NCBI RefSeq assembly: GCF_054482595.1 | Contig: NZ_CM137008.1 | DNA length: 64,000 bases | Reading direction: 5' to 3' (one strand) | In this document: piece after piece, positions 31,963-50,904 of the stretch | Numbering within the stretch: position 1 is the stretch's first letter | How the letters are laid out: each line of letters starts with the position of its first letter | The notes under the pieces: generated by a model | What the model was told of the DNA's origin: nothing | Databases searched by the model: none | The model's input: the letters and a program-made list of their open reading frames with translations, nothing else | Program-made: the position numbers and the translations under genes

Positions 31963-32519
31963 TGACGGGAAAACTGATTTGGTTAATGGGGCCGTCCGGC
32001 TCCGGGAAAGATAGCCTGCTGGCGGAACTCCGCCTGCGGGAACAAACTCAGTTACTGGTGGCGCATCGCTACATCACGCGCGACGCCAGCGCTGGAAGCG
32101 AAAACCATATCGCCCTGAGCGAGCAGGAGTTTTTTACCCGCGCGGGGCAAAACCTACTGGCCTTAAGCTGGCACGCTAACGGTCTGTATTATGGCGTCGG
32201 CGTCGAGATCGACCTCTGGCTGCACGCCGGATTCGACGTGCTGGTCAACGGCTCACGCGCCCATCTGCCGCAGGCGCGGGCGCGCTATGCATCGGCGCTG
32301 CTGCCCATCTGCTTACAGGTGTCGCCGGAGATCCTGCGCCAGCGCCTGGAAAACCGTGGTCGTGAAAACGCCAGTGAAATTAACGCCCGGCTGGCGCGCG
32401 CTGCCCGCTATACTCCACAGGATTGCCATACGCTCAATAATGACGGCAGCCTGCGCCAGTCGGTCGACACGCTGCTGACGCTGATTCATCAGAAGGAGAA
32501 ACACCATGCCTGCTTGTGA
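31962..32519 (+). CDS. phnN: ribose 1,5-bisphosphate phosphokinase PhnN
   Basis: 185 aa; P-loop GPSGSGKDS; 1-bp overlap with phnM stop. Confidence 0.9.
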
Positions 32520-32940
32520 GCTTCGCCCGGCCACGCAGTACGACACCGACGCGGTTTACGCGCTGATTTGTGAGCTAAAACAGGCGGAGTTTGACCATCA
32601 CGCGTTTCGCGTGGGCTTTAACGCCAACCTGCGTGACCCAAACATGCGCTACCATCTGGCGCTGCTGGATGGCGAAGTTGTTGGCATGATCGGCCTGCAT
32701 TTGCAGTTTCATCTGCATCATGTCAACTGGATCGGCGAAATTCAGGAGCTGGTGGTGATGCCGCAGGCGCGCGGTCTGAACGTCGGCAGTAAGTTACTGG
32801 CGTGGGCAGAAGAAGAAGCCCGCCAGGCCGGGGCCGAAATGACCGAGCTTTCCACCAACGTGAAGCGCCACGACGCGCACCGTTTCTATCTGCGCGAAGG
32901 CTACGAGCAGAGCCATTTCCGCTTCACCAAGGCGCTGTAA
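32506..32940 (+). CDS. phnO: aminoalkylphosphonate N-acetyltransferase PhnO
   Basis: 144 aa GNAT-type; overlaps phnN 3' end. Confidence 0.88.
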
Positions 32941-32941
32941 C

Positions 32942-33700
32942 ATGAGCCTGACCCTCACGCTCACGGGCACCGGCGGCGCACAGGGCGTTCCGGCATGGGG
33001 CTGCGAGTGCGCGGCCTGCGCACGAGCGCGACGCTCGCCGCAGTATCGCCGCCAGCCGTGCAGCGGCGTAGTGAAGTTTAACGAGGCTGTCACCCTGATC
33101 GACGCCGGGCTGCACGATCTCACCGATCGCTGGTCGCCAGGATCGTTCCAGCAGTTTTTGCTGACGCATTATCATATGGATCACGTTCAGGGACTGTTTC
33201 CGCTGCGCTGGGGCGTGGGCGATTCGATCCCGGTCTACGGCCCGCCGGATGAACAGGGCTGCGACGATCTGTTTAAACATCCGGGCCTGCTTGATTTCAG
33301 CCACACGGTGGAACCGTTTGTGGTGTTCGATTTGCAGGGGTTGCAGGTGACACCGCTGCCGCTAAACCACTCAAAACTGACCTTCGGTTATCTGCTGGAA
33401 ACGGCACACAGCCGGGTGGCGTGGCTGTCTGACACCGCAGGCCTGCCGGAAAAAACGCTGAAATTTTTACACAATAATCAGCTACAGGTAATGGTGATTG
33501 ATTGCAGCCACCCGCCGCGCGAGGATGCACCGCGTAATCACTGTGATTTAAATACCGTGCTTGCGCTGAATCAGGTTATCCGCTCGCCACGGGTGATTCT
33601 GACCCATATCAGCCACCAGTTTGATGCGTGGCTGATGGAGAACGCGCTGCCGTCAGGGTTTGAGGCGGGGTTTGATGGGATGGAGATTGGGGTGGCGTGA
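32942..33700 (+). CDS. phnP: metallo-beta-lactamase-fold phosphodiesterase PhnP
   Basis: 252 aa; HxHxDH motif ([10 protein letters not shown]). Confidence 0.9.
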
Positions 33701-33732
33701 TGGGGGAGAATGTGCGCGCTGATGCCCTCATC

Positions 33733-33820
33733 CCGGCCCTCTCCCACAGGGAGAGGGAGAAAATCACCCCGTGCACCATCGGTCCCCTCGCCCCTTTGGG
33801 GAGAGGGTTAGGGTGAGGGG
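33733..33820. repeat. GC-rich palindromic intergenic element (family uncertain, possibly Box C-like)
   Basis: ccctctccc-aca-gggagaggg followed by cccctcgcccctttggggagagggttagggtgagggg between convergent phnP and yjdP. Confidence 0.5.
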
Positions 33821-33843
33821 CGATGCCAGCACCCGAGCCTACC

Positions 33844-34173
33844 TCACCGCCCATACTCATCTTCCATTCTCCGCTCTTCATCCTCCAGTTGCCGACGCTC
33901 CTGATCAAGCTGACGTTGGCGATCGTCCAGCTGCCTGCGGCGATCTTCAAACTGGCGGCGGCGGTCGTCATATTGTCTGCGCCGATCGTCGCTCACTTCA
34001 CGCTGCCAGCCGTCGTCGCGCGAATCTTCATAATCTCGCCCACGGTCAGGGTTATAAGCATCGTTAATCGCCTGCTGAATATTGCCAATGGTGTCGTCGA
34101 TAATATCGGCCTGGGCCGGTACGGTGGTCAGCGTGAGCAGGGTGAAAAAAAAGAGCGTGGAGTGGCGTTTCAT
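33844..34173 (-). CDS. yjdP: small secreted low-complexity protein YjdP
   Basis: 109 aa; N-terminal signal peptide; C-terminal DDRRRQ/ERRQ repeats; convergent with phnP as in K-12. Confidence 0.75.
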   Translation of the reverse strand: MKRHSTLFFFTLLTLTTVPAQADIIDDTIGNIQQAINDAYNPDRGRDYEDSRDDGWQREVSDDRRRQYDDRRRQFEDRRRQLDDRQRQLDQERRQLEDEERRMEDEYGR

Positions 34174-34241
34174 AAACTCGGCCTCGCAACAAAGTTAATA
34201 CAAGGTAGGCAAAGGTGCCTGTTACGAGTAGAGGAGGATTC

Positions 34242-36503
34242 TCAATTCTCTTGCCCCAGCGCCTGCGCCAACTGCGCACGGGTAAAGGGTTTGCGCAACA
34301 GCGCCACGTCTGGCAGCGCGGGGTTATGGCTGGGGCGTAAATCCTGACCGCTGATGAGTAGCAGCGTCAGGTGCGGGTAAAGTTTGCGGGCCGCATTGAC
34401 CACTTCTGCGCCGCTCATGCCGCCGGGGAGCATTAAATCGCTGATAAAAATATCGATTTCTGCTGATGCCGCCAGCAGATCCAGCGCCTGTTCGCCGCTG
34501 CTTGCTTCCAGCGTCAAATAGCCCAGCAGGTGCAACTGTTCGCAGATGGTCTGGCGCACCGCGGCTTCATCTTCCAGCACTAACACCAGTTTATCGCCGC
34601 TGACAGAAGCCTGTTCTACTGCCGCTGGCGATAGGTTTTTCGCCGCCGTCAGCGCGCGGGGAAGCTGTAATCTGACCGTTGTCCCCTGCCCCGGCGCGCT
34701 TTCAATTTCAACGCGCCCACCGGACTGGCGCACAAAACCATAGACCATCGACAAACCCAGCCCGCTGCCGCTGCCCGTCTGTTTGGTGGTAAAGAATGGC
34801 TCAAATACCTGGCTTTTCACCGCCTGCGACATACCGCTGCCATGATCGATGACCTCCAGTGCCACCATGTCCTGACGCTGCCCACTGCTGCGAGTAACGC
34901 GCTGATTCCAGGTACGAATTTTGATGATTCCCGTCTGCCCTTCCATCGCGTCACGGGCGTTCATCACCAGGTTGATGATGGCATTTTCCAGTTGGCTGAC
35001 GTCAATCCACGCGGGCCACGCCGGAGACTGCGCTTCAATCTCCAGCGCCAGCGTTGCCGGTAAGGAGTGGCGCATTAATTCGCTTAACTCTTCCAGCAAT
35101 GTTTTCAGTTCAACGGCTTGCGGATGTAAGGACTGCTTGCGGGAAAACGCCAGCAGTCGTTGTGTCAGTAGCGCCCCACGTTCGGCAGCTTGCAGCGCCC
35201 GCTGTATTCGCGGCGCGTCTGGCGAGTCCGGATTCACCAGCTCCAGGCTGCCAATAATCACCGCCAGCAGATTATTAAAATCATGGGCCAGCCCGCCCGT
35301 CAGTTGCCCGACCGCTTTCAGTTTCTGGCTGTGTAATAGCGCCTCTTCCAACCCCTGCCGCTCAGTTTGGGCAATCTCCATCTGCGTGGTCTTCTCTTTT
35401 AGCAGCCGTGAGGTTCGTTCGAGTGACTCGGTATTGCGGGCAAAAACGTTAAAGGCGCGCGCCAGTTCACCCAACTCATCACGCCGCTGTAACGCCGGAA
35501 AAGTGACGTCCGCTTCGCCGTACGCCAGGCGGCTCATGGCGCGGGAAATCGCCGTCAGGTTAGTGCCGAGGTTGCGATAGATATACCAGCCGGCAAACGC
35601 GGTGATCACCACCGCTAACAGGGCGAAAATCATGATCACCCTCTCGCCGGAGCGCAAATCCTGGTAACTTTGCGCCACGCGCTGACCGGAGAGCGTCGCC
35701 ACCTGTTCGGCGTAACGGTTGATGTCGCCATTGAGGATCGCCACCAGCGCTTTGATGTGAAACATATACCAGCTGATTGCCAGATCGCTTTGCTCCAGAG
35801 CGGCAGAAAGCGGCGCGAGTTTACGCATTTCATCATTGAAATCATTGAGTAACGTATTAACCAATGGCATATCGCTGTGGGTCGGCAACGCAGACATTAC
35901 CCCGACCAGTTGATGAATAATCGCCTGCGGCGCGGGGGTGGCAATAGCGGCAACAATCAGTCGGTTCATCTCGTTAAGCAAAATATCATCTTGCGCGTGA
36001 GTGACTTTTTGCAGATGCCGCAGATAACTTAAGTTTTGATACAGCGAACTTAACAGCGCGTTGCGCTCCAGATGCCGCCTTTGCCCGCGCTCCAGCATAC
36101 CGCCGACGCTGGTTTGCAGTTCGTTGCTACGCGTGATGATTCGCGTCACCAGCCCGGCTTCCTGCTGCGCTAAAGGCGCGTTCGCCAGTTGTGCAAGCGA
36201 GCTTTTTAATGCCCGCTGTGTCTCCTGCAACCGCTCGGCTTCGCCTTTATATTCCAGCGCTCCCACCACCTGCGACAATCGCACCGCCGCCGTTGCCACG
36301 TTTGCCGTGTCGCGCGCCAGATTCAGGCTGCCGGTCATATCATCCACCGTTTGCTGCTGCACCAGCTCCTGCATCTGGCTGGCATGACGAAAGCCCATTA
36401 CCGCCACGCCGCTGACCATCAACGTCACCGCCACCACCAGCAAATTCAAAAGCAGCAATCGCCCGCGCGCGCTGGCAAAAAAATGACGTCCGGGGTGCGC
36501 CAT
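34242..36503 (-). CDS. hybrid sensor histidine kinase (periplasmic sensor, HAMP, HisKA, HATPase, C-terminal receiver; no HPt domain)
   Basis: ~753 aa from ATG at 36503 (MAHPGRHFF...) with GGAG 8 nt upstream; two TM segments flank a ~300 aa periplasmic region; H-box GGLAHDFNNLL; G-boxes DHGSGM / GSGLGLSMV; receiver with ISDLMLPGG; protein ends ~25 aa after the receiver. Confidence 0.85.
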   Translation of the reverse strand: MAHPGRHFFASARGRLLLLNLLVVAVTLMVSGVAVMGFRHASQMQELVQQQTVDDMTGSLNLARDTANVATAAVRLSQVVGALEYKGEAERLQETQRALKSSLAQLANAPLAQQEAGLVTRIITRSNELQTSVGGMLERGQRRHLERNALLSSLYQNLSYLRHLQKVTHAQDDILLNEMNRLIVAAIATPAPQAIIHQLVGVMSALPTHSDMPLVNTLLNDFNDEMRKLAPLSAALEQSDLAISWYMFHIKALVAILNGDINRYAEQVATLSGQRVAQSYQDLRSGERVIMIFALLAVVITAFAGWYIYRNLGTNLTAISRAMSRLAYGEADVTFPALQRRDELGELARAFNVFARNTESLERTSRLLKEKTTQMEIAQTERQGLEEALLHSQKLKAVGQLTGGLAHDFNNLLAVIIGSLELVNPDSPDAPRIQRALQAAERGALLTQRLLAFSRKQSLHPQAVELKTLLEELSELMRHSLPATLALEIEAQSPAWPAWIDVSQLENAIINLVMNARDAMEGQTGIIKIRTWNQRVTRSSGQRQDMVALEVIDHGSGMSQAVKSQVFEPFFTTKQTGSGSGLGLSMVYGFVRQSGGRVEIESAPGQGTTVRLQLPRALTAAKNLSPAAVEQASVSGDKLVLVLEDEAAVRQTICEQLHLLGYLTLEASSGEQALDLLAASAEIDIFISDLMLPGGMSGAEVVNAARKLYPHLTLLLISGQDLRPSHNPALPDVALLRKPFTRAQLAQALGQEN

Positions 36504-36616
36504 ATCACGCTCCGTGAAGAAAAATCGCAATATGACAAATATGAACGGCTTCTGACATTTTGCATTTACTTTCCTGTGATGGAGTGCTGATATCGACAAC
36601 CTCGCAGGAGTCCACC
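36504..36616. promoter_or_regulatory. divergent promoter region between the sensor kinase gene and the ABC transporter operon
   Basis: 113-bp AT-rich spacer between divergent start codons; direct repeats tgacaaatatgaa (36533-36545) and tgacattttgcat (36553-36565) spaced 20 bp apart. Confidence 0.5.
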
Positions 36617-38137
36617 ATGAACAGCACGCCAGTTCTGGAGATGCGCAATATTGCCAAAGCCTTCGGCAAATTTTATGCACTCAAAGGGGTGGATTTGACG
36701 GTCTACCCTGGCGAGATCCATGCCCTGATGGGGGAAAACGGCGCGGGAAAAAGCACGCTGATGAAGGTGCTGGCGGGGGCGTATACCGCCACCAGCGGCG
36801 AGATCCTCATAGACGGCAAGCCCTTTCACATTCGCACGCCAAAAGATGCCTTAAGCGCCGGTATTACGCTGATTTATCAGGAGATGCAGCTGGCACCGAA
36901 TCTGTCGGTGGCAGAAAATATTTTTCTCGGCAGCGAGCTTTCCCACGGCGGGCTGGTGCAGCGTAAAGAGATGCTAGTGCAGGCGCAAAAAGTGATCGAC
37001 CGCCTCGGCGCGCAGTTTAACGCCAGCGATAAGGTCATGACGCTGACCATTGCCGAGCAACAGCAGGTCGAAATCGCCCGCGCACTACATCGCAACAGCC
37101 GCATTCTGGTGATGGACGAACCCACCGCTGCCCTCTCCTCCCGTGAAACTCACCGTCTGTTTGAACTGATTATGCGGCTGCGCGATGAAGGGATGGCGAT
37201 TATCTACATCAGCCACCGTATGGCGGAAGTGTATGAGCTTTCCGATCGCGTCAGCGTGCTGCGCGACGGGCAATACGTTGGCAGCCTGACCCGCGATAAC
37301 CTCAATGCCGGGGAGCTGGTGCGGATGATGGTCGGCAGGCCACTGAGCGATCTGTTCAATAAAGAGCGCGATATCCCGCTCGGTAAAGCCCGCCTGAATG
37401 TTCACCACCTGACCGACGGCGGCAAAGTCCAGCCGAGTAGCCTGCTGGTGCGTTCCGGCGAAATTGTTGGCCTCGCCGGACTGGTGGGTGCCGGACGTTC
37501 CGAACTGGCGCAGTTGATCTTCGGCGTGCGGAAAGCGACAGGCGGAATGATTGAAGTCGATGGTGAACCGGTGGTGATCCACTCCCCGCGCGAAGCCATC
37601 GATCTTGGCATTGGTTTTCTCACCGAAAACCGCAAAGAACAAGGCTTATTCCTTGAAATGGCAGCAGCCGAAAACATCACCATGGCAACCCTGGAGCGCG
37701 ATGCCCGCTGGGGAATGCTCAATCGCAAAAAAGCGCAAACCATTTCCGATGACGCCATTAAGTTGCTCAACATTCGCGTGCCTCACGCCCAGGTACGCGC
37801 GGGCGGGCTTTCCGGCGGCAATCAGCAAAAACTGTTGATCTCCCGCTGGGTGGCGATTGGCCCGCGCATTTTACTGCTCGATGAACCCACCCGCGGCGTG
37901 GACGTTGGCGCCAAAAGCGAGATCTACCGGATCATGAACGAGATGGCGCGCAAGGGCGTGGCGATCCTGATGATCTCCAGCGAACTGCCGGAGATAGTGG
38001 GAATGAGCGATCGCGTCTATGTGATGCGCGAAGGCAGCATTGCCGGTGAGTTAAACGGCAAAAACATCACCCAGGAAAACATTATGACCTTAGCGACTGG
38101 CGTCAACGACGCCCATTCCCAGGCGGTAACCTCATGA
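36617..38137 (+). CDS. sugar ABC transporter ATP-binding protein, tandem ABC domains (RbsA/CUT2-type)
   Basis: 506 aa from ATG at 36617 ([16 protein letters not shown]...) preceded by aggag; two Walker A motifs ([18 protein letters not shown]) and two signature motifs (LSGGNQQK in the second half). Confidence 0.88.
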
Positions 38138-39108
38138 CGACCTCTGCAAAAACCTCTGCCAAAAAAATGCTGATGAGCGATCTGATGCAAACGGTCGGCA
38201 TCTTGCCCATTTTGATTCTGATCGTGGCGGTATTTGGCTTTATCGCGCCAAACTTTTTTACCGAAAGCAACCTGCTGAATATTACCCGCCAGGCATCGAT
38301 CAACATTGTTCTGGCGGCGGGGATGACCTTCATCATTTTGACCGGCGGGATCGATCTTTCCGTGGGTTCGATCCTCGGCACCACAGCGGTGGCGGCGATG
38401 GTCGTCTCCCTTAGCCCTGAGTTCGCCATGCTGTCGATCCCGGCAGCGCTGATGCTCGGCCTGCTGCTGGGGCTGTTCAACGGCGCGCTGGTGGCCTTTG
38501 CCGGATTGCCACCGTTTATCGTCACGCTTGGCACCTATACGGCGCTGCGCGGGGCGGCGTATCTGCTGGCGGACGGCACCACGGTTATCAACTCCAACAT
38601 TAATTTCGAGTGGATAGGCAATAACTATCTCGGGCCGGTCCCGTGGCTGGTGGTGATTGCCCTCGCAGTGATTGTGCTGTGCTGGTTTATTCTGCGCCGC
38701 ACCACGCTTGGCGTTCATATCTACGCCGTCGGCGGCAATATGCAGGCGGCGCGTCTTACCGGCATTAAGGTCTGGCTGGTGCTGCTGTTTGTTTATGGTA
38801 TGAGCGGCCTGCTTTCTGGGCTTGGCGGGATTATGAGCGCCTCACGGCTGTACAGCGCCAACGGCAACTTAGGCATGGGTTACGAACTGGATGCCATTGC
38901 AGCGGTGATCCTCGGCGGCACCAGTTTTGTCGGCGGCATCGGCACCATCACCGGCACGCTGGTCGGCGCGCTAATTATCGCCACGCTCAACAATGGCATG
39001 ACCTTAATGGGCGTCTCTTACTTCTGGCAACTGGTGATCAAAGGGGCGGTGATCATCATTGCGGTGCTGATCGACAAATACCGTACCCGACACCATCAAA
39101 GTGCATAA
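38134..39108 (+). CDS. sugar ABC transporter permease (RbsC-like)
   Basis: 324 aa polytopic membrane protein; 4-bp ATGA overlap with the ATPase gene. Confidence 0.85.
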
Positions 39109-39126
39109 ACACATGAGGAATACAGC

Positions 39127-40068
39127 ATGAGATTGAAGCCCTTAGTGACCGCGCTCTATGCAGGCGCGCTGCTGACCGCAGCACCGTTCGCCCAGGCGAA
39201 AGAACTGAAATCGATAGGCGTAACGGTGGGCGATCTGGCGAACCCGTTCTTCGTGCAGATCACCAAAGGCGCGGAGCTGGAAGCACGCAAACTGGCAGGC
39301 GATAACGTCAAAGTGACGCTGGTTTCCAGCGGCTACGATCTGGGTCAGCAGGTGTCGCAGATAGACAACTTTATCGCCGCTAACGTCGATATGATTATCC
39401 TCAACGCTGCCGATTCAAAAGGGATCGGCCCAGCGGTGAAACGGGCGAAAGATGCCGGGATCGTAGTCGTCGCGGTTGACGTAGCGGCAGAAGGTGCTGA
39501 TGCCACCATCACCTCCGATAACACCCAGGCGGGCGAAATGGCCTGTAAATACATCACCGATCGCCTGAAAGGCAAAGGCAATGTGGTGATCATCAACGGC
39601 CCGCCGGTATCCGCCGTGCAAAACCGCGTCGAAGGATGCCAGACTGAATTTAAACGCCATCCTGACATCAAAGTGCTCTCTGACAACCAGAACGCGAAAG
39701 GCAGTCGTGAAGGCGGGCTGGAGGTAATGACGGGACTGCTGGCGGCAAATCCGAAGATCGACGGCGTATTTGCGATTAACGATCCCACCGCAATCGGTGC
39801 CGATCTGGCAGCAAAACAGGCGCAACGTAACGAGTTCTTTATTGTTGGTGTGGACGGAAGCCCGGACGCCGAAGAGGCGCTCAAGCGTGAGAACTCGTTG
39901 TTTGTCGCTACTCCGGCGCAAGATCCCCAGGTGATGGCAGCGAAAGCGGTGGAAATTGGCTACGACATTTTGCAGGGCAAACCTGCGCCGAAAGAGCCGG
40001 TGCTGATCCCGGTGACGATGATCGATAAAAACAACGTCGGCAATTACAAAGGCTGGACGGTGAAATAA
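39127..40068 (+). CDS. periplasmic sugar-binding protein (type I PBP, RbsB-like)
   Basis: 313 aa; signal peptide MRLKPLVTALYAGALLTAAPFAQA; RBS gagga upstream. Confidence 0.85.
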   Translation: MRLKPLVTALYAGALLTAAPFAQAKELKSIGVTVGDLANPFFVQITKGAELEARKLAGDNVKVTLVSSGYDLGQQVSQIDNFIAANVDMIILNAADSKGIGPAVKRAKDAGIVVVAVDVAAEGADATITSDNTQAGEMACKYITDRLKGKGNVVIINGPPVSAVQNRVEGCQTEFKRHPDIKVLSDNQNAKGSREGGLEVMTGLLAANPKIDGVFAINDPTAIGADLAAKQAQRNEFFIVGVDGSPDAEEALKRENSLFVATPAQDPQVMAAKAVEIGYDILQGKPAPKEPVLIPVTMIDKNNVGNYKGWTVK

Positions 40069-40122
40069 GTCCACACGCCGGGCGGCGCAGCTGCCCGGTC
40101 ACCGCTAAGGAGAACGCTTTCG

Positions 40123-40806
40123 ATGAAACGCTCCGCTATAAACGACATTCTCGGCCATACACGGCAATTCTTTTCGCAACATGACGTACATCTGCCGCCC
40201 TTTGCCAGTTTCTCGCCTGCTCAATGGCAGCAGCTCGACACCGCCGCGTGGGAGGAGGTTTTTGATCTTAAACTCGGCTGGGATGTTACCGCTTTTGGTC
40301 GCAACAACTTTGCAGCACACGGGCTGACGCTGTTTACCCTACGTAACGGCTCAGCAAAAGGAATGCCGTATGTGAAATGTTACGCCGAGAAGATCATGCA
40401 TGTGCGCGATGCGCAGGTCACGCCAATGCATTTTCACTGGCGTAAGCGTGAGGACATTATCAATCGCGGCGGCGGTAATTTAATTGTTGAACTGTGGAAT
40501 GCCGATAGTAACGAGCAAACGGCTGATAGTGACATTACGGTGGTGATCGACGGCTGCCGCCAGAAACATACTGCAGGCACTCAGTTGCGCCTGTCTCCCG
40601 GCGAAAGTATCTGCCTGCCGCCCGGCCTGTATCACAGCTTTTGGGCGGAAACCGGCTTTGGCGATGTTCTGGTTGGCGAAGTCTCTTCTGTCAATGACGA
40701 CGACCACGATAACCACTTTTTACAGCCACTGGACCGCTACAACCTGATTGACGAAGACGAACCTGCACAGTTGGTATTGTGTAACGAATACCGCCAGTTC
40801 CGCTGA
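40123..40806 (+). CDS. cupin-fold sugar isomerase, D-lyxose/D-mannose isomerase-like
   Basis: 227 aa; RBS aaggag; His-rich metal-site region (VTPMHFHWRKRE); length and context match my recollection of the characterised pathogenic E. coli D-lyxose isomerase family (not verified by search). Confidence 0.7.
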   Translation: MKRSAINDILGHTRQFFSQHDVHLPPFASFSPAQWQQLDTAAWEEVFDLKLGWDVTAFGRNNFAAHGLTLFTLRNGSAKGMPYVKCYAEKIMHVRDAQVTPMHFHWRKREDIINRGGGNLIVELWNADSNEQTADSDITVVIDGCRQKHTAGTQLRLSPGESICLPPGLYHSFWAETGFGDVLVGEVSSVNDDDHDNHFLQPLDRYNLIDEDEPAQLVLCNEYRQFR

Positions 40807-40820
40807 ATAAGGATAACGTT

Positions 40821-41681
40821 ATGCCATTGATTTCTCTCGCTGAAGGGCTGGCACATGCCCGCGAACATCACTATTCGTTAGGTGCGTTTAATGTGCTGGA
40901 CTCGCACTTTTTACGCGCCTTGTTTGCTGCTGCCAGACAAGAACGTTCGCCCTTTATTATCAACATTGCCGAAGTACATTTTAAATATATCTCGCTGGAT
41001 TCCCTGGTCGAGACAGTGAAATTTGAAGCGGCGCGTCATGCCATTCCGGTGGTGTTAAATCTCGATCACGGACTGCATTTTGAATCGGTGGTGCAAGCGT
41101 TGCGGCTGGGATTCAGCTCGGTAATGTTTGATGGCTCCACGCTGGGGTATGAAGAAAATGTCCGCCAGACGCGGGAAGTGGTGAAAATGTGCCATGCCGT
41201 TGGCGTATCGGTAGAAGCTGAACTGGGCGCGGTGGGTGGCGACGAAGGCGGTGCACTCTATGGCCATGCCGATGAATCCCTGTTTACCGATCCGCAACTG
41301 GCGCGTGATTTTGTCGACCGTACCGGCATTGACGCGTTGGCCGTGGCGATTGGCAATGCACACGGCAAATATCGCGGCGAACCGAAACTCGATTTCCCGC
41401 GCCTCGACGCTATCCGCCAGCAGGCTGCTATCCCGCTGGTATTACACGGCGGCTCAGGGATTAGCGATGCCGATTTCCGCCGCGCCATCGAACTGGGTAT
41501 CCACAAAATCAATTTCTACACTGGCATGTCGCAAGCGGCGCTGGCTGCCGTTGAGGCCCGAATGGCGTACCGTCAGCCGATGTATGACGAGTTTGCCGAG
41601 TTACTGCTGGCAGTGGAAGCCGCCATCAGCGATACGGTTGCACAACAGATGCGTATTTTTGGCAGTGCGGGGCAGGCATGA
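40821..41681 (+). CDS. class II ketose-bisphosphate aldolase family protein (GatY/KbaY/FbaA-like)
   Basis: 286 aa; alignable by eye with GatY (NLDHG, SVMFDGS, SVEAELG, ALAVAIGNAHG, LVLHGGSG motifs). Confidence 0.8.
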   Translation: MPLISLAEGLAHAREHHYSLGAFNVLDSHFLRALFAAARQERSPFIINIAEVHFKYISLDSLVETVKFEAARHAIPVVLNLDHGLHFESVVQALRLGFSSVMFDGSTLGYEENVRQTREVVKMCHAVGVSVEAELGAVGGDEGGALYGHADESLFTDPQLARDFVDRTGIDALAVAIGNAHGKYRGEPKLDFPRLDAIRQQAAIPLVLHGGSGISDADFRRAIELGIHKINFYTGMSQAALAAVEARMAYRQPMYDEFAELLLAVEAAISDTVAQQMRIFGSAGQA

Positions 41682-42679
41682 TGGAGCGTAAAGGAATTAT
41701 CGCCGCAGGCAATATGTTGGTTGACCACGTCCATCAGATTATCCAGTGGCCAGAGCGCGGCTGGCTGGCGGAGATCACCCACAGCGAACGCTCCACCGGC
41801 GGTGCGCCGCTTAACGTCCTGCTGACGCTGGCGAAAATGCGCACCGGGCTGCCGTTACAGGCGGTTGGGCTAATCGGTCAGGACAGCGACGGCGATTACA
41901 TCATGGCGATGCTTGAGCAATATCACGTCAATCGTCAGCATGTGCAGCGCACTACCTTTGCCCCGACGTCGATGTCGCAGGTGATGACAGACCCAAGCGG
42001 GCAGCGGACGTTTTTCCATTCGCCGGGTGCAAACAGACTTTTGGATCTTCCGGCGTTCGATCAGCTCGATAACACCATGAAGATTTTCCATCTCGGCTAT
42101 TTACTGTTGCTCGACAGCCTGGATATGCCGGACGATGTTTACGGCACCCGTAGCGCACGCCTGCTGGCGCAAATGCGTGATACTGGCTTTGAAACCTCAC
42201 TCGACCTGGTCTCCCGTAAGGGCGATCCGCGTTATCAGCCGCTGGTGCTGTCCGCGTTGCGCCATCTGGATTATCTGGTAATTAACGAACTGGAGGCCGG
42301 GGAGTTTAGCGGGCTGGAAATTCGGTTACCCAACGGCGAACCGCATATCGCGCATATTGCTGCCGCCGCGCGTGAACTGTTAGATGCGGGCGTGCGCCAG
42401 CGGGTGGTGATCCACTGCCCGGAAGGGGCGTGGGGAGAGACCCCAGAACAGGGCGGCGTGTGGATCCCTTCGCAAAAGTTAGAACAACGGGAAATTATCG
42501 GCAGCGTCGGCGCGGGCGATGCATTTTGTGCCGGATTTTTATATGGCTGCCATGAACGCTGGACGCTTACCGAGAGCATCAAACTGGCACACGCCTGCGC
42601 GCGGGCAAGCCTGTTATGCGCCAATGCCATCGACGGGGCGAAAACGCTGGAAGAGCTGCAAACAGAAATGTCGGATTAA
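41678..42679 (+). CDS. pfkB/ribokinase-family sugar kinase
   Basis: 333 aa; C-terminal GAGDAF motif (GSVGAGDAFCAGFLYG); 4-bp overlap with the aldolase gene. Confidence 0.8.
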   Translation: MMERKGIIAAGNMLVDHVHQIIQWPERGWLAEITHSERSTGGAPLNVLLTLAKMRTGLPLQAVGLIGQDSDGDYIMAMLEQYHVNRQHVQRTTFAPTSMSQVMTDPSGQRTFFHSPGANRLLDLPAFDQLDNTMKIFHLGYLLLLDSLDMPDDVYGTRSARLLAQMRDTGFETSLDLVSRKGDPRYQPLVLSALRHLDYLVINELEAGEFSGLEIRLPNGEPHIAHIAAAARELLDAGVRQRVVIHCPEGAWGETPEQGGVWIPSQKLEQREIIGSVGAGDAFCAGFLYGCHERWTLTESIKLAHACARASLLCANAIDGAKTLEELQTEMSD

Positions 42680-43383
42680 TGCACGTCGGCAGCGAAGACA
42701 TACCCCAGACCGCGCAGAGTTTTAATCAACATCGGCTGATGCGGGTTGAGTTCGATTTTGCGTCGTAAGCGCATGATTAATACGTCGATGGTGCGATCAA
42801 ACACCTCCACGCTGTCGCTGTGGGTGAACGCCAGCAACTGCTCGCGGCTCAATACCCGACGCGCGTTTTGCGCCAGAGCCAGTAACAAGCCATATTCGCC
42901 CTGAGTTAACTCGACATGTTGCTGAAGCGGATTGTGCAACTGGCAGCGCATGGTATCGAGATACCAGCCATTGAATGACAGCCCGGCGCTTTTCTCGTCA
43001 TTAACCGCCAGCGCACCAACCCGTCGCAACACCGCTTTCAGTCGTGCGACCACCACCCGCGGGGTGAACGGTTTGCAGATGTAATCATCCGCGCCCATTT
43101 CCAGCCCGACCACCACATCAGACTCACTGCCCATGCCGGTCAACATCACCACCGGCAATGTCGGACGCAGTTTCTGGATTTGCTGCAATACCCTCAGGCC
43201 GTTGGTATCGGGTAGCATCATATCCAGCACCACCAGCGCAATGTCAGGATCGCCCTCAATACGCAATATGGCCTCCTGTCCGGTATGGCAGACTGAAACC
43301 GTAAAGACATGTTCACTTAACACGTCCTGCAACAGTGCGCAGATAGCCGTGTCATCATCCACCACCAGCACGACGGGTTTCAT
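42676..43383 (-). CDS. OmpR/PhoB-family response regulator
   Basis: 235 aa from ATG at 43383 (MKPVVLVVDDD...) with GGAG upstream; the track ORF starts 6 codons earlier at 43401; receiver plus winged-helix (LRGLGYVF); 3' end overlaps the kinase gene stop convergently. Confidence 0.85.
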   Translation of the reverse strand: MKPVVLVVDDDTAICALLQDVLSEHVFTVSVCHTGQEAILRIEGDPDIALVVLDMMLPDTNGLRVLQQIQKLRPTLPVVMLTGMGSESDVVVGLEMGADDYICKPFTPRVVVARLKAVLRRVGALAVNDEKSAGLSFNGWYLDTMRCQLHNPLQQHVELTQGEYGLLLALAQNARRVLSREQLLAFTHSDSVEVFDRTIDVLIMRLRRKIELNPHQPMLIKTLRGLGYVFAADVH

Positions 43384-43673
43384 GGTTACACTCCGCATCA
43401 TTCATCTGATTAATCATTGTGCGTACTTCTTGTCGAAGTGAAAGCTGAAAGTAATATAAATAATAAAAATATAAGTCAGGTCACATTATTGATGATAGTA
43501 ATAAATATGCCGTACTTTTCCCTCTTCAGCACAAATGCCTAATAAAATGGATCGTTCCGCTCACACTTCCACTTATTAAAGTCGCAATTTCCCAATTATG
43601 ATAACGCCAGCTTTAAATGACGTATTTTGCATGGATTACATATTTACGACATAAATGATAAATGGAGATTTAT

Positions 43674-45659
43674 ATGAATAACTCTCGGTTATTCCGTTTG
43701 AGCAGGATTGTTATTGCGTTAACCGCCGTCAGCGGCATGATGGTAAATACCGCTAACGCGAAAGAGGAAGCGAAAGCCGCCACTCAATATACCCAACAGG
43801 TTAATCAGAATTACGCCAAATCATTACCGTTTAGCGATCGTCAGGATTTTGACGATGCCCAGCGTGGATTTATCGCCCCGCTGCTGGATGAAGGTATTCT
43901 GCGTGATGCGAACGGTAAAGTTTACTACCGCGCAGACGATTACAAATTTGATATTAATGCCGCTGCGCCGGAAACCGTAAACCCCAGCCTGTGGCGTCAG
44001 TCGCAGATCAACGGCATATCTGGCCTGTTCAAAGTCACCGATAAAATGTATCAGGTGCGCGGCCAGGATATCTCTAACATTACGTTCGTTGAGGGCGAGA
44101 AAGGCATTATTGTCATCGACCCGCTGGTGACGCCGCCTGCCGCAAAAGCCGCACTTGACCTTTACTTCCAGCATCGTCCGCAAAAACCGATTGTTGCCGT
44201 TATTTACACTCACAGCCACACTGACCACTATGGTGGCGTGAAAGGTATTATCTCTGAAGCCGATGTTAAATCCGGCAAAGTTCAGGTGATTGCCCCTGCT
44301 GGCTTTATGGACGAAGCCATCAGCGAAAACGTGCTGGCGGGTAACATCATGAGCCGCCGTGCGCTCTACTCTTACGGTCTGTTACTGCCGCACAACGCGC
44401 AAGGCAACGTGGGTAATGGCCTTGGCGTGACGCTGGCAACCGGCGACCCGAGCATTATTGCGCCAACCAAAACTATCGTCAGAACTGGCGAGAAGATGAT
44501 TATCGACGGCCTGGAGTTTGACTTCCTGATGACCCCAGGCAGCGAAGCCCCAGCCGAAATGCACTTCTATATTCCGGCCCTGAAAGCCCTGTGTACCGCC
44601 GAGAACGCCACGCATACCCTGCACAACTTCTACACTCTGCGCGGCGCGAAAACCCGCGATACCAGCAAGTGGACAGAGTACCTGAACGAAACGCTGGATA
44701 TGTGGGGTAACGACGCGGAAGTACTGTTTATGCCGCACACCTGGCCGGTCTGGGGCAATAAGCATATCAATGATTATATTGGTAAATATCGCGATACCAT
44801 CAAGTATATTCACGATCAAACCCTGCATCTGGCGAACCAGGGCTACACCATGAATGAAATCGGCGACATGATTAAGCTGCCGCCTGCGCTTGCCAATAAC
44901 TGGGCCAGCCGCGGTTATTACGGTTCTGTCAGCCACAACGCCCGCGCGGTGTATAACTTCTATCTTGGCTATTACGACGGTAACCCGGCTAACCTGCATC
45001 CGTATGGTCAGGTAGAGATGGGCAAACGTTACGTGAAAGCGCTGGGCGGTTCTGCCCGTGTCATCAACCTGGCGCAAGAAGCGAACAAGCAAGGTGATTA
45101 CCGCTGGTCGGCAGAACTGCTGAAACAGGTGATTGCCGCCAACCCGGGTGACCAGGTCGCGAAGAATCTGCAAGCGAATAACTTTGAACAGCTGGGCTAT
45201 CAGGCCGAGTCCGCCACATGGCGCGGTTTCTACCTGACCGGCGCGAAAGAGCTGCGCGAAGGGGTGCATAAGTTCAGCCACGGCACCACCGGTTCCCCGG
45301 ACACCATTCGCGGAATGTCGGTCGAAATGCTGTTCGACTTTATGTCCGTTCGCCTCGATAGCGAAAAAGCCGCGGGTAAAAATATCAGCCTGAACTTCAA
45401 TATGAGCAACGGCGATAACCTCAACCTGACGCTGAACGATAGCGTGCTTAACTACCGTAAAACGCTGCAATCCCAAGCTGACGCCTCTTTCTACATCAGT
45501 CGTGAAGATCTGCACGCCGTGCTGACCGGACAAGCCAAAATGGCGGATCTGGTAAAAGCGAAGAAAGCCAAAATTATTGGCAATGGTGCGAAACTGGAAG
45601 AAATTATTGCCTGTCTGGATAATTTCGATTTGTGGGTAAATATCGTAACCCCAAATTAA
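43674..45659 (+). CDS. yjcS: metallo-beta-lactamase-fold alkyl/aryl sulfatase
   Basis: 661 aa from ATG at 43674 ([21 protein letters not shown]...); signal peptide; HxHxDH motif ([10 protein letters not shown]). Confidence 0.85.
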
Positions 45660-45669
45660 TGCCACTCAC

Positions 45670-45695
45670 TTTTGGGGGCGCTTAAGCCCCCAAAA
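45670..45695 (+). terminator. hairpin terminator downstream of yjcS
   Basis: ttttgggggc / gcccccaaaa inverted repeat with 6-nt loop; A/T runs on both sides. Confidence 0.6.
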
Positions 45696-45867
45696 GCATT
45701 TACTTTAAAAATATATGCAGCCAATTAATAAATAAAACATATAAGTTATGAATGCGGTGGCTGAATAAAGCTATTTTTATTCATCAAGAAAATAGCCATA
45801 CTGACGCCTTCAATGGATAGTGATATTCACTACAGATATTGTTCGCAGCAGACAGGATGTATTTAAT

Positions 45868-46143
45868 ATGCCAACAGTTCTCTCTCGCATGGCGATGCAA
45901 CTCAAAAAAACAGCCTGGATAATTCCCGTCTTCATGGTTTCGGGATGTTCATTATCTCCGGCAATCCCGGTGATCGGCGCTTATTATCCCAGCTGGTTTT
46001 TCTGCGCCATTGCCAGCCTTATATTGACGCTCATCACGAGGCGAGTTATTCAGCGGGCAAATATCAAGCTGGCATTTGTCGGAATTATTTATACCGCCCT
46101 TTTTGCTCTCTACGCCATGCTGTTCTGGCTGGCATTTTTCTAA
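45868..46143 (+). CDS. ytcA: small lipoprotein YtcA
   Basis: 91 aa from ATG at 45868; lipobox MVSGC; upstream of mdtN. Confidence 0.75.
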   Translation: MPTVLSRMAMQLKKTAWIIPVFMVSGCSLSPAIPVIGAYYPSWFFCAIASLILTLITRRVIQRANIKLAFVGIIYTALFALYAMLFWLAFF

Positions 46144-46161
46144 TCTATTTGAGACGCGCTC

Positions 46162-47193
46162 ATGGAAAGTATGCCGAAAAAAGCTCCTCGCAGTAAATTC
46201 CCTGCTCTGTTAGTGGTTGCGTTGGCGCTGGTTGCCCTTGTTTTCGTTATCTGGCGCGTAGACAGTGCGCCATCAACTAATGACGCTTACGCGTCAGCAG
46301 ATACCATTGATGTGGTGCCGGAAGTCAGCGGTCGCATTGTAGAACTGGCGGTCACCGACAACCAAGCGGTGAAGCAGGGCGATTTGCTGTTCCGCATTGA
46401 CCCGCGCCCGTACGAAGCCAATCTGGCGAAAGCCGAAGCCTCCCTCGCGGCACTGGATAAGCAAATTATGCTCACCCAGCGTAGCGTTGACGCGCAACAG
46501 TTTGGTGCCGACTCGGTTAACGCCACGGTAGAAAAAGCCCGTGCCGCCGCTAAACAGGCCACAGATACATTACGCCGCACCGAGCCATTACTGAAAGAAG
46601 GTTTTGTCTCAGCGGAAGACGTTGACCGTGCGAGGACCGCGCAGCGCGCTGCAGAAGCGGATCTTAATGCCGTATTGTTACAGGCGCAGTCAGCCGCCAG
46701 CGCCGTCAGCGGCGTCGATGCGCTGGTGGCGCAACGTGCGGCGGTCGAAGCGGATATTGCCCTGACCAAACTGCATCTGGAAATGGCGACCGTTCGCGCA
46801 CCGTTTGATGGCCGGGTCATTTCCCTCAAAACCTCCGTCGGGCAATTTGCTTCTGCCATGCGCCCTATTTTTACCCTAATCGACACTCGTCACTGGTACG
46901 TGATCGCCAACTTCCGCGAAACCGATCTGAAAAATATTCGCTCAGGTACACCCGCAACGATTCGCCTGATGAGTGACAGCGGCAAAACTTTCGAGGGTAA
47001 AGTGGATTCGATTGGCTACGGCGTGCTACCGGATGACGGCGGCCTGGTGCTGGGCGGCCTGCCAAAAGTGTCTCGCTCTATTAACTGGGTCCGCGTTGCC
47101 CAGCGTTTTCCGGTCAAAATCATGGTCGATAAACCTGACCCGGAAATGTTCCGCATCGGCGCTTCGGCAGTCGCTAATCTTGAGCCGCAATAA
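46162..47193 (+). CDS. mdtN: membrane fusion (HlyD-family) efflux component
   Basis: 343 aa; N-terminal TM anchor; operon position. Confidence 0.88.
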   Translation: MESMPKKAPRSKFPALLVVALALVALVFVIWRVDSAPSTNDAYASADTIDVVPEVSGRIVELAVTDNQAVKQGDLLFRIDPRPYEANLAKAEASLAALDKQIMLTQRSVDAQQFGADSVNATVEKARAAAKQATDTLRRTEPLLKEGFVSAEDVDRARTAQRAAEADLNAVLLQAQSAASAVSGVDALVAQRAAVEADIALTKLHLEMATVRAPFDGRVISLKTSVGQFASAMRPIFTLIDTRHWYVIANFRETDLKNIRSGTPATIRLMSDSGKTFEGKVDSIGYGVLPDDGGLVLGGLPKVSRSINWVRVAQRFPVKIMVDKPDPEMFRIGASAVANLEPQ

Positions 47194-50707: not shown

Positions 50708-50715
50708 AATGTCTG

Positions 50716-50750
50716 CCGCGTGATGGCTGTCACGCGGTATTTCGTTTCGT
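50716..50750 (+). terminator. rho-independent terminator downstream of mdtP
   Basis: ccgcgtga / tcacgcgg stem with loop tggctg, followed by tatttcgtttcgt. Confidence 0.7.
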
Positions 50751-50837
50751 CACGTCAAAACTGACGACAGCCTGTTTTTCGTCAGAGTTTTGAATAAATA
50801 GTGCCCGTAATATCAGGGAATGACCCCAAATAAAATG

Positions 50838-50853
50838 TGGCATAAAAGATGCA
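50838..50853 (+). promoter_or_regulatory. sigma54 (-24/-12) promoter of fdhF
   Basis: TGGCAT-N5-ATGCA with GG-to-GC spacing of 12 nt, about 50 bp upstream of the fdhF ATG; fdhF is an established sigma54/FhlA-dependent gene. Confidence 0.8.
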
Positions 50854-50904
50854 TACTGTAGTCGAGAGCGCGTATGCGTGATTTGATTAACTGGAGCGAG
50901 ACCG

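Follow-up and report, generated by a model that had tools for sequence, protein, structure and literature searches.

What occupies the chromosomal interval that holds the D-allose locus in Escherichia coli K-12, and how did it come to be there? In the window (the whole 64,000-nucleotide stretch of DNA analysed here, from contig NZ_CM137008.1 of assembly GCF_054482595.1), a first, sequence-only reading had pointed to eight non-K-12 genes between yjdP and yjcS, seen as an accessory block that replaced rpiB/als. We consider it very probable that this block is the OI-167 sugar locus, comprising a two-component system, an importer and three enzymes, and that it is an old enterobacterial resident that appears to have moved within E. 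coli by homologous recombination.

Gene content and borders

The ORF list with translations places eight ORFs, separated by short gaps only, at 34242-43383, and the annotation of K-12 MG1655 gives rpiB-alsR-alsBACEK for the yjdP-yjcS interval. Both the eight non-K-12 genes and the K-12 order of the flanks, with rpiB/als at this site, are therefore as first proposed. The interval initially delimited, 34174-43673, runs exactly from the yjdP start codon to the annotated yjcS start, and exact mapping of the junctions against K-12 had been suggested. By blastn, K-12 homology stops at 34151, so that the 5'-most 22 nt of yjdP already lie outside it, and restarts at 43453, 209 nt before the yjcS ORF begins. 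This delimits a specific segment of 9,301 bp, in place of 7,071 bp of K-12.

34152..43452, no strand: haplotype-specific segment, 9,301 bp, OI-167 of EHEC EDL933; the K-12 equivalent is rpiB-alsRBACEK, 7,071 bp (blastn junctions; 99.3% nucleotide identity to the O157:H7 block; literature)
33844..34173, minus strand: yjdP, left flank; the haplotype-specific segment includes its initial 22 nt and the adjoining 68-nt spacer (ORF list; O157 and K-12 annotation; end of K-12 homology at 34151; alignment)
43674..45659, plus strand: yjcS (alkyl sulfatase), right flank, with K-12 homology back from 43453 (O157 and K-12 annotation; blastn)

The block is O-island 167 (OI-167) of EHEC O157:H7 EDL933, lmvK(rbfS)-lmuXYZIAK-lmvR(rbfR), and has already been published. 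Indeed, its eight genes match O157:H7 in order, orientation and chromosomal site (ORFs versus O157:H7 annotation), with 99.3% nucleotide identity over the block and 98.9-100% amino acid identity for all eight proteins, and the phospho-acceptor residues are present at their expected positions (H410 and D692 in LmvK, D54 in LmvR). The OI-167 flanks in the window differ from the O157 flanks by 2-8%. Gene family labels were assigned from NCBIfam and Pfam.

34242..36512, minus strand: lmvK (= rbfS, Z5692), hybrid sensor kinase, 756 aa (Pfam; NCBIfam; 98.9% aa identity to O157; AlphaFold model and Foldseek)
36617..38137, plus strand: lmuX, CUT2-type sugar ABC transporter ATPase with two ABC domains (NCBIfam; 99.8% aa identity to O157)
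38134..39108, plus strand: lmuY, ABC transporter permease, BPD_transp_2 (NCBIfam/Pfam; aa identity to O157)
39127..40068, plus strand: lmuZ, periplasmic sugar-binding protein (Peripla_BP_4, ribose-binding-protein-like), putative co-sensor for LmvK (NCBIfam; ~90% identical to PDB 4RWE)
40123..40806, plus strand: lmuI (Z5688), cupin D-lyxose/D-mannose isomerase, Pfam Lyx_isomer (NCBIfam equivalog NF051472; PDB 3KMH/3MPB)
40821..41681, plus strand: lmuA, class II (zinc) ketose-phosphate aldolase of the FbaA/GatY/YdjI family (NCBIfam NF005284, 575 bits versus a cut-off of 406; PDB relatives)
41678..42679, plus strand: lmuK, PfkB-family sugar kinase (weak NCBIfam/PDB matches to ribokinase, fructokinase and YdjH; published activity assay)
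42676..43383, minus strand: lmvR (= rbfR, Z5684), OmpR/PhoB-type response regulator, D54 present (NCBIfam; 100% aa identity to O157)

The K-12 als/rpiB locus resembles the block in occupying the same yjdP-yjcS interval and in combining a CUT2 ABC importer with sugar-phosphate enzymes, and it is a direct neighbour of the lmv/lmu block in many genera; it differs in its RpiR-type regulator, AlsR, and in its enzymes. At the DNA level, blastn against K-12 finds 75-80% nucleotide similarity between als and the block, confined to three short patches in the ABC genes. At the left border, comparison of the lmvK and rpiB 3' ends in ~90 loci delineated a conserved motif.

34227..34247, minus strand: conserved motif AATTGAGAATCCTCCTCTACT, ~68 nt upstream of the yjdP ATG, which holds the lmvK stop codon and may be the -35 region of the yjdP promoter (lmvK and rpiB 3' ends compared in ~90 loci)

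In als-carrying genomes, it is the rpiB stop codon that falls within this motif. The string AATTGA GAATCCTCC, which follows lmvK in the window and rpiB in K-12 and Citrobacter, was considered as the scar of an rpiB-als deletion and rejected, since in the ~90 loci it proved to be the conserved yjdP-upstream motif, into which either upstream gene reads. Judged from the loci compared, this motif cannot tell deletion from insertion.

Importer, enzymes and substrate

LmuXYZ has the composition of a CUT2 importer (RbsABC-like), with a fused double ABC ATPase, a BPD_transp_2 permease and a Peripla_BP_4 binding protein (NCBIfam, Pfam). LmuX matches the NCBIfam AraG, XylG and RbsA models, each below its equivalog cut-off; because all equivalog scores fall below the cut-offs, LmuXYZ is none of the named transporters (RbsA, AraG, XylG, AlsA and others). 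LmuZ is conserved at 92-99%. LmuI scores 438 bits against NF051472 (cut-off 350) and 534 bits against PDB 3KMH over its full length (residues 1-227), and the expectation that this isomerase had already been characterised was borne out by PDB 3KMH/3MPB.

The sequence-only reading had taken substrate, pathway and regulation to be open, a view that is outdated. The sensor pair was published as the riboflavin sensor RbfS/RbfR (PNAS 2022; PMC9860305) and again as LmvK/LmvR, a mannose/lyxose regulator that acts on both the lmu operon and LEE (mBio 2023; PMC10128022). The functional experiments on the locus all come from EDL933. In that strain, LmvK and LmvR are required for lmuXYZIAK activation when D-lyxose or D-mannose is present, and deletion of lmuZYX or of lmuI impairs growth on lyxose (PMC10128022). 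According to the same study, LmuI converts lyxose to xylulose and mannose to fructose, with a Km for mannose quoted as 19.8 mM, LmuK has fructokinase activity in vitro, and LmuXYZ is ~60% identical to a Herbaspirillum mannose importer. The mannose phenotype is weak, a manA mutant growing only with LmvR over-expressed, and lmuK and lmuA are not needed for growth on lyxose (PMC10128022), so that any physiological substrate assigned to LmuK and LmuA is tentative.

A pathway built on these data would start with LmvK/LmvR switching on lmuXYZIAK in response to D-lyxose or D-mannose, through LmvR at ATATGA-N3-ATATGA upstream of lmuX, as in EDL933. LmuXYZ would import the sugar, as suggested by homology and by the lmuZYX deletion phenotype in EDL933, LmuI would isomerize lyxose to xylulose and mannose to fructose, LmuK would act as a PfkB ketose kinase, and LmuA may split the resulting ketose phosphate.

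Alternatively, D-lyxose and D-mannose could be side substrates, the real one being another sugar that is degraded by way of a ketose 1-phosphate, with LmuK adding phosphate at C1 and LmuA splitting the resulting monophosphate, like E. coli YdjH/YdjI. The high Km for mannose, the weak mannose phenotype and the dispensability of lmuK and lmuA on lyxose agree with this proposal. Moreover, classical class II aldolases require a 1,6-bisphosphate, which a single kinase would be unable to make from an unphosphorylated imported sugar. The pairing of a PfkB kinase with a class II aldolase is that of YdjH/YdjI, and LmuA matches YdjI at 188 bits (6OFU) while LmuK matches YdjH weakly, at 35 bits (3H49/3IN1), a likeness no closer than that to ordinary FBP and tagatose-bisphosphate aldolases. 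The enzyme set also differs among species (I+A+K, K only, I only or none), the sensor and importer being constant. Against it, both lyxose and mannose induce the operon, growth on lyxose needs lmuI and lmuZYX, and the importer resembles a mannose importer (PMC10128022). In addition, distant sensor relatives adjoin an ABC importer of this type, along with either Lyx_isomer and a ROK kinase or a ROK and an FGGY (xylulokinase-like) kinase, and this recurrence of Lyx_isomer or the FGGY kinase points to the lyxose/mannose class. We therefore regard a different principal substrate as rather unlikely and retain lyxose/mannose use as the working assignment.

Distribution and origin

Both PMC9860305 and PMC10128022 call the locus an acquired island, and the sequence-only reading partly shared the view that a horizontally acquired, EHEC-associated genomic island displaced the allose locus. 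Within E. coli, the replacement part of that reading holds. The block is carried by only 421 of 5,426 complete genomes, and a chimeric alsK+lmvK query found the two genes adjacent in none of the 5,426, so that als and the block are alternatives at this site. An island would also be consistent with the very low diversity of the block among carriers relative to the flanks and with a G+C content of 56-57%, above the E. coli average. When G+C alone is compared along the region, however, the block ranges over 52-59%, the left (phn) flank over 58-62% and the right flank over 47-54%, the neighbouring phn genes (~60%) being equally rich.

The borders themselves are devoid of island hallmarks, as had been noted at the outset. 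No tRNA genes were found at the block borders, nor any meaningful direct or inverted repeats flanking it, and there is no integrase or transposase gene, the ORFs leaving no unassigned space for one (34242-43383). Rfam returned zero matches in 33000-46500, and a scan for consensus promoters and terminators gave no enrichment over shuffled sequences.

The distribution beyond E. coli also argues against acquisition. More than 70 enterobacterial species have an LmvK orthologue at 73-83% identity, most of the loci concerned adjoining yjdP and/or phnP, and als sits between yjdP and lmvK in 14 species representatives. In Citrobacter, Enterobacter, Kosakonia, Raoultella, Cedecea and other genera (more than 10 in all), an orthologous block is found next to yjdP-phn, frequently with als in tandem. 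The Citrobacter lmvR directly adjoins fdhF, a gene located at 50905-53049 in the window. The same site is occupied by the block in cryptic Escherichia clades, in E. ruysiae and in an E. marmotae/ruysiae-type genome, with a divergence that matches the flanks; indeed, in comparisons across Escherichia species and across genera, the block genes and the flanks show parallel levels of nucleotide identity. Because orthologous blocks stand at yjdP-phn across genera and their divergence follows the flanks, the locus appears to be an enterobacterial resident and not an EHEC-specific acquisition, ancestral residence being deduced here from synteny and divergence. Nor is the distribution that of one pathotype, since many carriers bear no EHEC label; among them are O169:H41 F6326-C1, O157:H16, an isolate called APEC37, as well as isolates from chickens, pigs and humans (genomes of 4.7-5.2 Mb). 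Acquisition as an EHEC island is thus very unlikely, and the origin had been misread, even though the block does replace als within E. coli.

A resident locus would have stood between phn-yjdP and fdhF, often adjoining als, and would have been lost in most E. coli and kept without als by a minority. Its movement within the species by homologous recombination in the flanks, as the sequence-only reading had suggested, fits the identity profile. Among the three E. coli carriers compared, identity is 99-100% over the block but 92-97% over the flanks and changes abruptly near 34000 and 44000, a pattern compatible with allelic exchange. Re-introduction from a close Escherichia relative could also explain why the block varies so little within E. 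coli. A third allele, with neither als nor lmv, was found in EC6868; it has the K-12-type organization, with deletions within rpiB and over the stretch running from rpiB to the alsK terminator, together with 82 nt of unknown origin, and blastn found no remnant of the lmvR upstream region in it.

Sensor kinase, regulator and operator

In LmvK, two TM helices enclose a periplasmic domain predicted to be all-helical; HAMP, HisKA (H410), HATPase_c and REC (D692) come after it. Pfam found no HPt domain, and the protein ends at residue 756, right after REC. Its AlphaFold model has a pLDDT above 80 for residues 40-300, and the top real Foldseek matches of the sensor domain are TorS, McpS and PilJ, with a probability of 1.0, but E values of ~2e-3 and target TM-scores of 0.45-0.68. 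The sensor domain is thus predicted to be TorS/McpS-like.

This organization is reminiscent of TorS/TorT/TorR, which senses TMAO. Both systems have a hybrid kinase, an OmpR-type partner and a ribose-binding-protein-like periplasmic protein encoded alongside, and the periplasmic domain of LmvK is predicted to resemble the all-helical double four-helix bundle of TorS (Foldseek 3I9Y and 3O1I, probability 1.0, target TM-score up to 0.64, E only ~2e-3). However, the C-terminal HPt domain of TorS has no counterpart in LmvK, and LmuZ, which scores 42 bits against the TorT model (cut-off 200), belongs to a complete ABC importer. In the VirA/ChvE/VirG system of Agrobacterium, the sugar-binding protein of an ABC importer modulates a receiver-bearing kinase, which phosphorylates an OmpR-type regulator directly. 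LmvK scores 219 bits against a VirA-like model and LmvR 180 bits against the VirG model, far below the equivalog cut-offs of 647 and 344, and the Agrobacterium system has another sensor domain and other signals. Docking of LmuZ on LmvK as a co-sensor is plausible by analogy, and we propose it as a candidate role.

The published LmvR operator is found in the window as an exact match.

36530..36544, plus strand: LmvR operator ATATGACAAATATGA, direct repeat ATATGA-N3-ATATGA between lmvK and lmuX (exact match; published footprint)

This box, which PMC10128022 footprinted in the lmuX promoter at positions -41 to -62, has a single match in the 64-kb window. It is present as one exact copy each in 45 of 91 fetched loci, directly upstream of lmvK where lmvK coordinates are known. 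In the promoter scan, the lmuX promoter departs from the consensus, as expected for an activator-dependent promoter.

With regard to the signal, riboflavin increases RbfS autophosphorylation in vitro, RbfS transfers phosphate to RbfR in vitro, and riboflavin-induced LEE expression requires rbfSR (PMC9860305); whether phosphotransfer is direct or relayed is a point on which PMC9860305 and PMC10128022 disagree. That the locus is mainly a riboflavin-sensing virulence switch (RbfS/RbfR), with the sugar genes between the regulators incidental, is nevertheless most improbable, since kinase, regulator and ABC importer remain linked in more than 70 species, the LmvR operator before lmuX is conserved across genera, distant sensor homologues again adjoin sugar-binding proteins, and the genome of the window's strain (4.88 Mb, small for an EHEC) suggests a non-EHEC. 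The genera that carry the linked kinase, regulator and importer are not known to have LEE.

Discussion

The block itself adds nothing new, since the isomerase structure (2010), the two-component system (2022, 2023) and the operon, operator and substrates (2023) have been published. Judging by its genome size, the window's strain is probably not an EHEC, and the LEE output known from EDL933 may have no target in it; there, the locus should serve sugar use, the activation of LEE virulence genes by LmvR being a further use in EHEC.

More tentatively, we put forward a fuller reading that we hold to be possible, if somewhat short of probable. OI-167 would be a vertically inherited enterobacterial sugar-sensing locus, lost by most E. 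coli and rewired in EHEC onto the ler promoter. Its kinase would sense sugar indirectly, via LmuZ on the TorS-like helical sensor domain, and the attached receiver would be an internal regulator, not a relay step. If true, LmuZ-mediated sensing and an internal-regulator receiver would reconcile the "riboflavin" and "mannose" reports and the absence of an HPt domain.

For the literature, the distribution described here is a correction: the locus extends beyond O157:H7, O145:H28 and O55:H7, it has no mobile-island hallmarks, and it is syntenic across Enterobacteriaceae beside als. Accordingly, what has been described as a step in EHEC evolution, the acquisition of rbfSR/lmvKR, is to be reread as the retention or allelic exchange of an old locus, together with its regulatory co-option.

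The locus and its published function

The interval between yjdP and yjcS is filled from 34242 to 43383 by eight genes separated by gaps of at most 104 nt. The coordinates given by the sequence-only reading, 34174-43673, are the exact yjdP-yjcS intergenic interval, and the ORF list together with NCBIfam and Pfam families confirms its eight-gene block:

Minus strand: hybrid histidine kinase of 756 aa (lmvK)
Plus strand: ABC ATPase, permease and binding protein (lmuX, lmuY, lmuZ)
Plus strand: cupin isomerase, class II aldolase and PfkB kinase (lmuI, lmuA, lmuK)
Minus strand: OmpR-type regulator (lmvR)

As that reading stated, rpiB-alsR-alsBACEK, the D-allose locus, occupy this site in K-12 MG1655. 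Using blastn against K-12, we placed the last homologous position at 34151, 22 nt inside yjdP, and the resumption of homology at 43453, 209 nt ahead of the yjcS ORF start; 9,301 bp in the window thus take the place of 7,071 bp in K-12. The borders are unmarked, as had been noticed, with no tRNA, border repeat or Rfam family and no ORF room left over. Over 14 kb the window shows 100% identity to the 4.88-Mb chromosome of XH990, an E. coli strain isolated from a human.

The block is an already known locus, described as O-island 167 in two papers. O157:H7 carries the identical set of eight genes at the matching site (99.3% nucleotide and 98.9-100% protein identity to the window), the operator ATATGA-N3-ATATGA lies at 36530-36544, its sole occurrence within the 64 kb, and residues H410 and D692 of LmvK and D54 of LmvR are all kept. 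Liu et al. (2022) named Z5692/Z5684 RbfS/RbfR; in their hands riboflavin increased the autophosphorylation of RbfS, RbfS passed its phosphate on to RbfR in vitro, and RbfR was found to activate ler (PMC9860305). Yang et al. (2023) called this pair LmvK/LmvR and gave the name lmuXYZIAK to the six intervening genes; deletion of lmvK, lmvR, lmuI or lmuZYX impaired growth on D-lyxose (PMC10128022). In EDL933, induction of the operon by lyxose and mannose requires LmvK and LmvR, and LmvR binds the direct repeat, its 22-nt footprint including ATATGA-N3-ATATGA and spanning -41 to -62 of the lmuX promoter (PMC10128022). The earlier view of substrate, pathway and regulation as open questions is therefore out of date, while that reading was right that the isomerase family has been characterized: the lmuI product matches the solved O157:H7 D-lyxose isomerase (PDB 3KMH/3MPB) and scores above the NCBI equivalog cut-off for D-lyxose/D-mannose isomerase.

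The two groups thus gave one kinase-regulator pair different names and different signals (riboflavin, PMC9860305, versus mannose/lyxose, PMC10128022). Their phosphotransfer models also conflict, being direct in vitro in the former and via an unknown Hpt protein in the latter. The riboflavin study makes no mention of the ABC transporter; six sugar genes separate its two genes.

Work on EDL933 showed that LmuI makes xylulose from lyxose and fructose from mannose, that LmuK has fructokinase activity, and that lmuK and lmuA are dispensable on lyxose (PMC10128022). LmuA would cleave a ketose phosphate. Since an unphosphorylated imported sugar and a single kinase would yield no 1,6-bisphosphate, it is possible that the pathway runs via a ketose-1-phosphate, for which the YdjH/YdjI pair of PfkB kinase and class II aldolase offers a precedent. 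Such a route would make lmuK and lmuA redundant with host enzymes, in keeping with their dispensability on lyxose.

Distribution and movement within E. coli

The block is present in 421 of 5,426 complete E. coli genomes, in single copy and always on the chromosome, and is essentially complete in 410. The als locus is carried by ~3,370 genomes, and ~1,640 have neither, exemplified by EC6868, a K-type locus with deletions. A chimeric query joining the 3' halves of alsK and lmvK matched by one half in 3,790 genomes and by both halves in one place in none of the 5,426, so als and lmv/lmu are adjacent in none of these genomes. In the EC6868 allele, what remains of the alsK terminator is separated from the region upstream of yjcS by 82 nt (L003 3402-3483) with no match in K-12 or the window.

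The system has been said to be confined to O157:H7, O145:H28 and O55:H7 (PMC9860305, PMC10128022). This restriction does not hold: many isolates from humans, chickens, pigs and the environment (rivers included), with genomes of 4.7-5.2 Mb, carry blocks 99.3-100% identical to that of the window, as do O157:H16 Santai and O169:H41 F6326-C1 (the latter at the same site), and many carriers are not labelled EHEC. The goat isolate R32_14_1F has a block of 93.7% identity, with a lmuA-lmuK deletion annotated as pseudogenes. In the neighboring phn operon, phnO is annotated as frameshifted in the compared O157:H7 strain (L001:1507-1942) and is intact in the window (32506-32940).

Compared with O157:H7 and with F6326-C1, the window is 92-97% identical in phn and yjdP, 99-100% from ~34000 to ~44000, and 96-98% inside yjcS. 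This profile indicates that the lmv haplotype was exchanged by homologous recombination with breakpoints near the block, and the earlier proposal of recombination in the conserved flanks holds. The first 22 nt of yjdP and the adjoining 68-nt spacer (34152-34241) are equal in length and only ~58% identical between lmv-type and als-type haplotypes, against ~95-97% for the remainder of yjdP; the YjdP signal peptide reads MKRHSTLFFF in the window and MKRFPLFLLF in K-12. The yjdP 5' end marks an old haplotype boundary within a gene. Taken with the 99-100% identity of the block, this divergence indicates that the two haplotypes are old and that the lmv haplotype now in E. coli shares a recent common ancestor.

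A probable resident locus of Enterobacteriaceae

Outside E. coli, the identity of LmvK homologs falls stepwise, from 99% in E. coli to 96-98% in cryptic Escherichia, 94% in E. ruysiae/E. marmotae and 82% in Citrobacter. With one genome per species, relatives at 73-83% were found in Citrobacter, Enterobacter, Leclercia, Lelliottia, Kosakonia, Phytobacter, Raoultella, Buttiauxella, Atlantibacter, Cedecea, Franconibacter and Pseudescherichia. At the nucleotide level the block genes diverge from the window in step with the flanking genes.

Nucleotide identity to the window (block genes; flanking genes)
E. ruysiae and a second genome of that type (LmvK named E. marmotae by NCBI): 89-94%; 92-94%
Cryptic clade (E14V7): 93-96%; 94-98%
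Citrobacter/Enterobacter: 72-88%; 67-78% (phnN-P, yjdP)

Scoring all fetched loci by tblastn with window and K-12 proteins, we found that the block adjoins yjdP and/or phnP in most. In 14 species representatives, among them E. soli, Lelliottia, Kosakonia oryziphila, Phytobacter ursingii, several Raoultella, Cedecea and C. koseri, the als operon and rpiB lie between yjdP and lmvK, in the order phn-yjdP-rpiB-alsRBACEK-lmvK-lmuXYZ...-lmvR; C. freundii is arranged likewise. In C. freundii, lmvR is directly followed by fdhF (95% identical to window 50905-53049), so both flanks are syntenic, and yjcS-ytcA-mdtNOP (43674-50900), an extra segment in Escherichia, is itself a lineage-specific insertion or loss. 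Of 91 loci, 45 contain the exact LmvR box, each in a single copy, which lies directly upstream of lmvK wherever the position of lmvK is known. In E. ruysiae and the second genome of that type (L004, L011), the whole phnC-P operon is absent and yjdP directly adjoins yjdN and phnA (yjdM).

The junction between lmvK and the motif upstream of yjdP varies by genus, which is better explained by als having been lost several times independently from a tandem ancestor than by recurrent insertion at a single spot. Under either scenario, lmv/lmu would be a resident locus. The motif, (A)ATTTGAGATTCCTCCGCTAC (34227-34247, minus strand), is conserved across genera in ~90 related loci, ~68 nt before yjdP, whose promoter may have its -35 region there. 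It contains the stop codon of the upstream gene, whether rpiB or lmvK, so that the LmvK C-terminal tail differs by genus (…ALGQEN, …ALRHPRN, …ALRKVMVI).

An extra segment of ~800 bp lies between lmvK and yjdP in cryptic Escherichia clades and in one E. marmotae/ruysiae-type genome (L011). Its 210-aa ORF in L011 (L011:12378-13010) has no NCBIfam match; a remnant in R32_14_1F (L093:2059-2376) is annotated by PGAP as a GNAT acetyltransferase. With als, this ORF or nothing found there, the lmvK-yjdP gap is a hotspot. On the other side of yjdP, the phnP-yjdP spacer (33701-33843) is a variable palindromic repeat region of 143 nt in the window, 76 nt in O157, 146 nt in K-12 and 34 nt in EC6868. Its inverted matches to K-12 include CCCTCTCCC...GGGAGAGGG and GGGGAGAGGGTTAGGGTGAGGGG, which resemble boxC/REP-type elements.

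Signal sensing and the variable enzymes

Kinase, regulator and importer co-occur in all loci not cut by a contig end except that of Citrobacter sp. On2M (L021), which has no lmvR match. The enzymes between them vary.

Operon enzymes by species
Most species: lmuI, lmuA and lmuK
E. ruysiae and the second genome of that type: lmuK only (lmuI and lmuA missing)
Cedecea: lmuI only (lmuA and lmuK missing)
Raoultella, Phytobacter massiliensis: lmuI, lmuA and lmuK all missing

Pfam identifies HAMP, HisKA, HATPase_c and receiver domains in LmvK and no HPt domain; the periplasmic domain covers residues ~38-285. AlphaFold models residues 1-370 as all-helical (pLDDT >80 over residues 40-300); among genuine structural matches the TorS sensor domain (alone or complexed with TorT), the ligand-binding domain of McpS and PilJ rank highest, with probability 1.0 but E values of only ~2e-3 and target TM-scores of 0.45-0.68. 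Searching 1.84 billion representatives with a profile of the sensor region gave distant full-length relatives, and we inspected the neighborhoods of five. Three adjoin a CUT2 ABC importer whose binding protein is of the Peripla_BP_4 family; of these, one also has Lyx_isomer and a ROK kinase beside it and another a ROK and an FGGY kinase. A fourth lies beside a regulator and an isolated binding protein, a layout resembling TorS/TorR/TorT, and the fifth a phosphonate-type ABC importer. LmuZ is ~90% identical to PDB 4RWE. The recurrent sensor-importer linkage and the constant sensor-importer core make it plausible that LmvK senses via LmuZ.

The remaining value of the finding lies in two corrections to the literature, namely the non-EHEC carriers and a resident rather than acquired origin, and in a testable idea on how the kinase may sense its signal.
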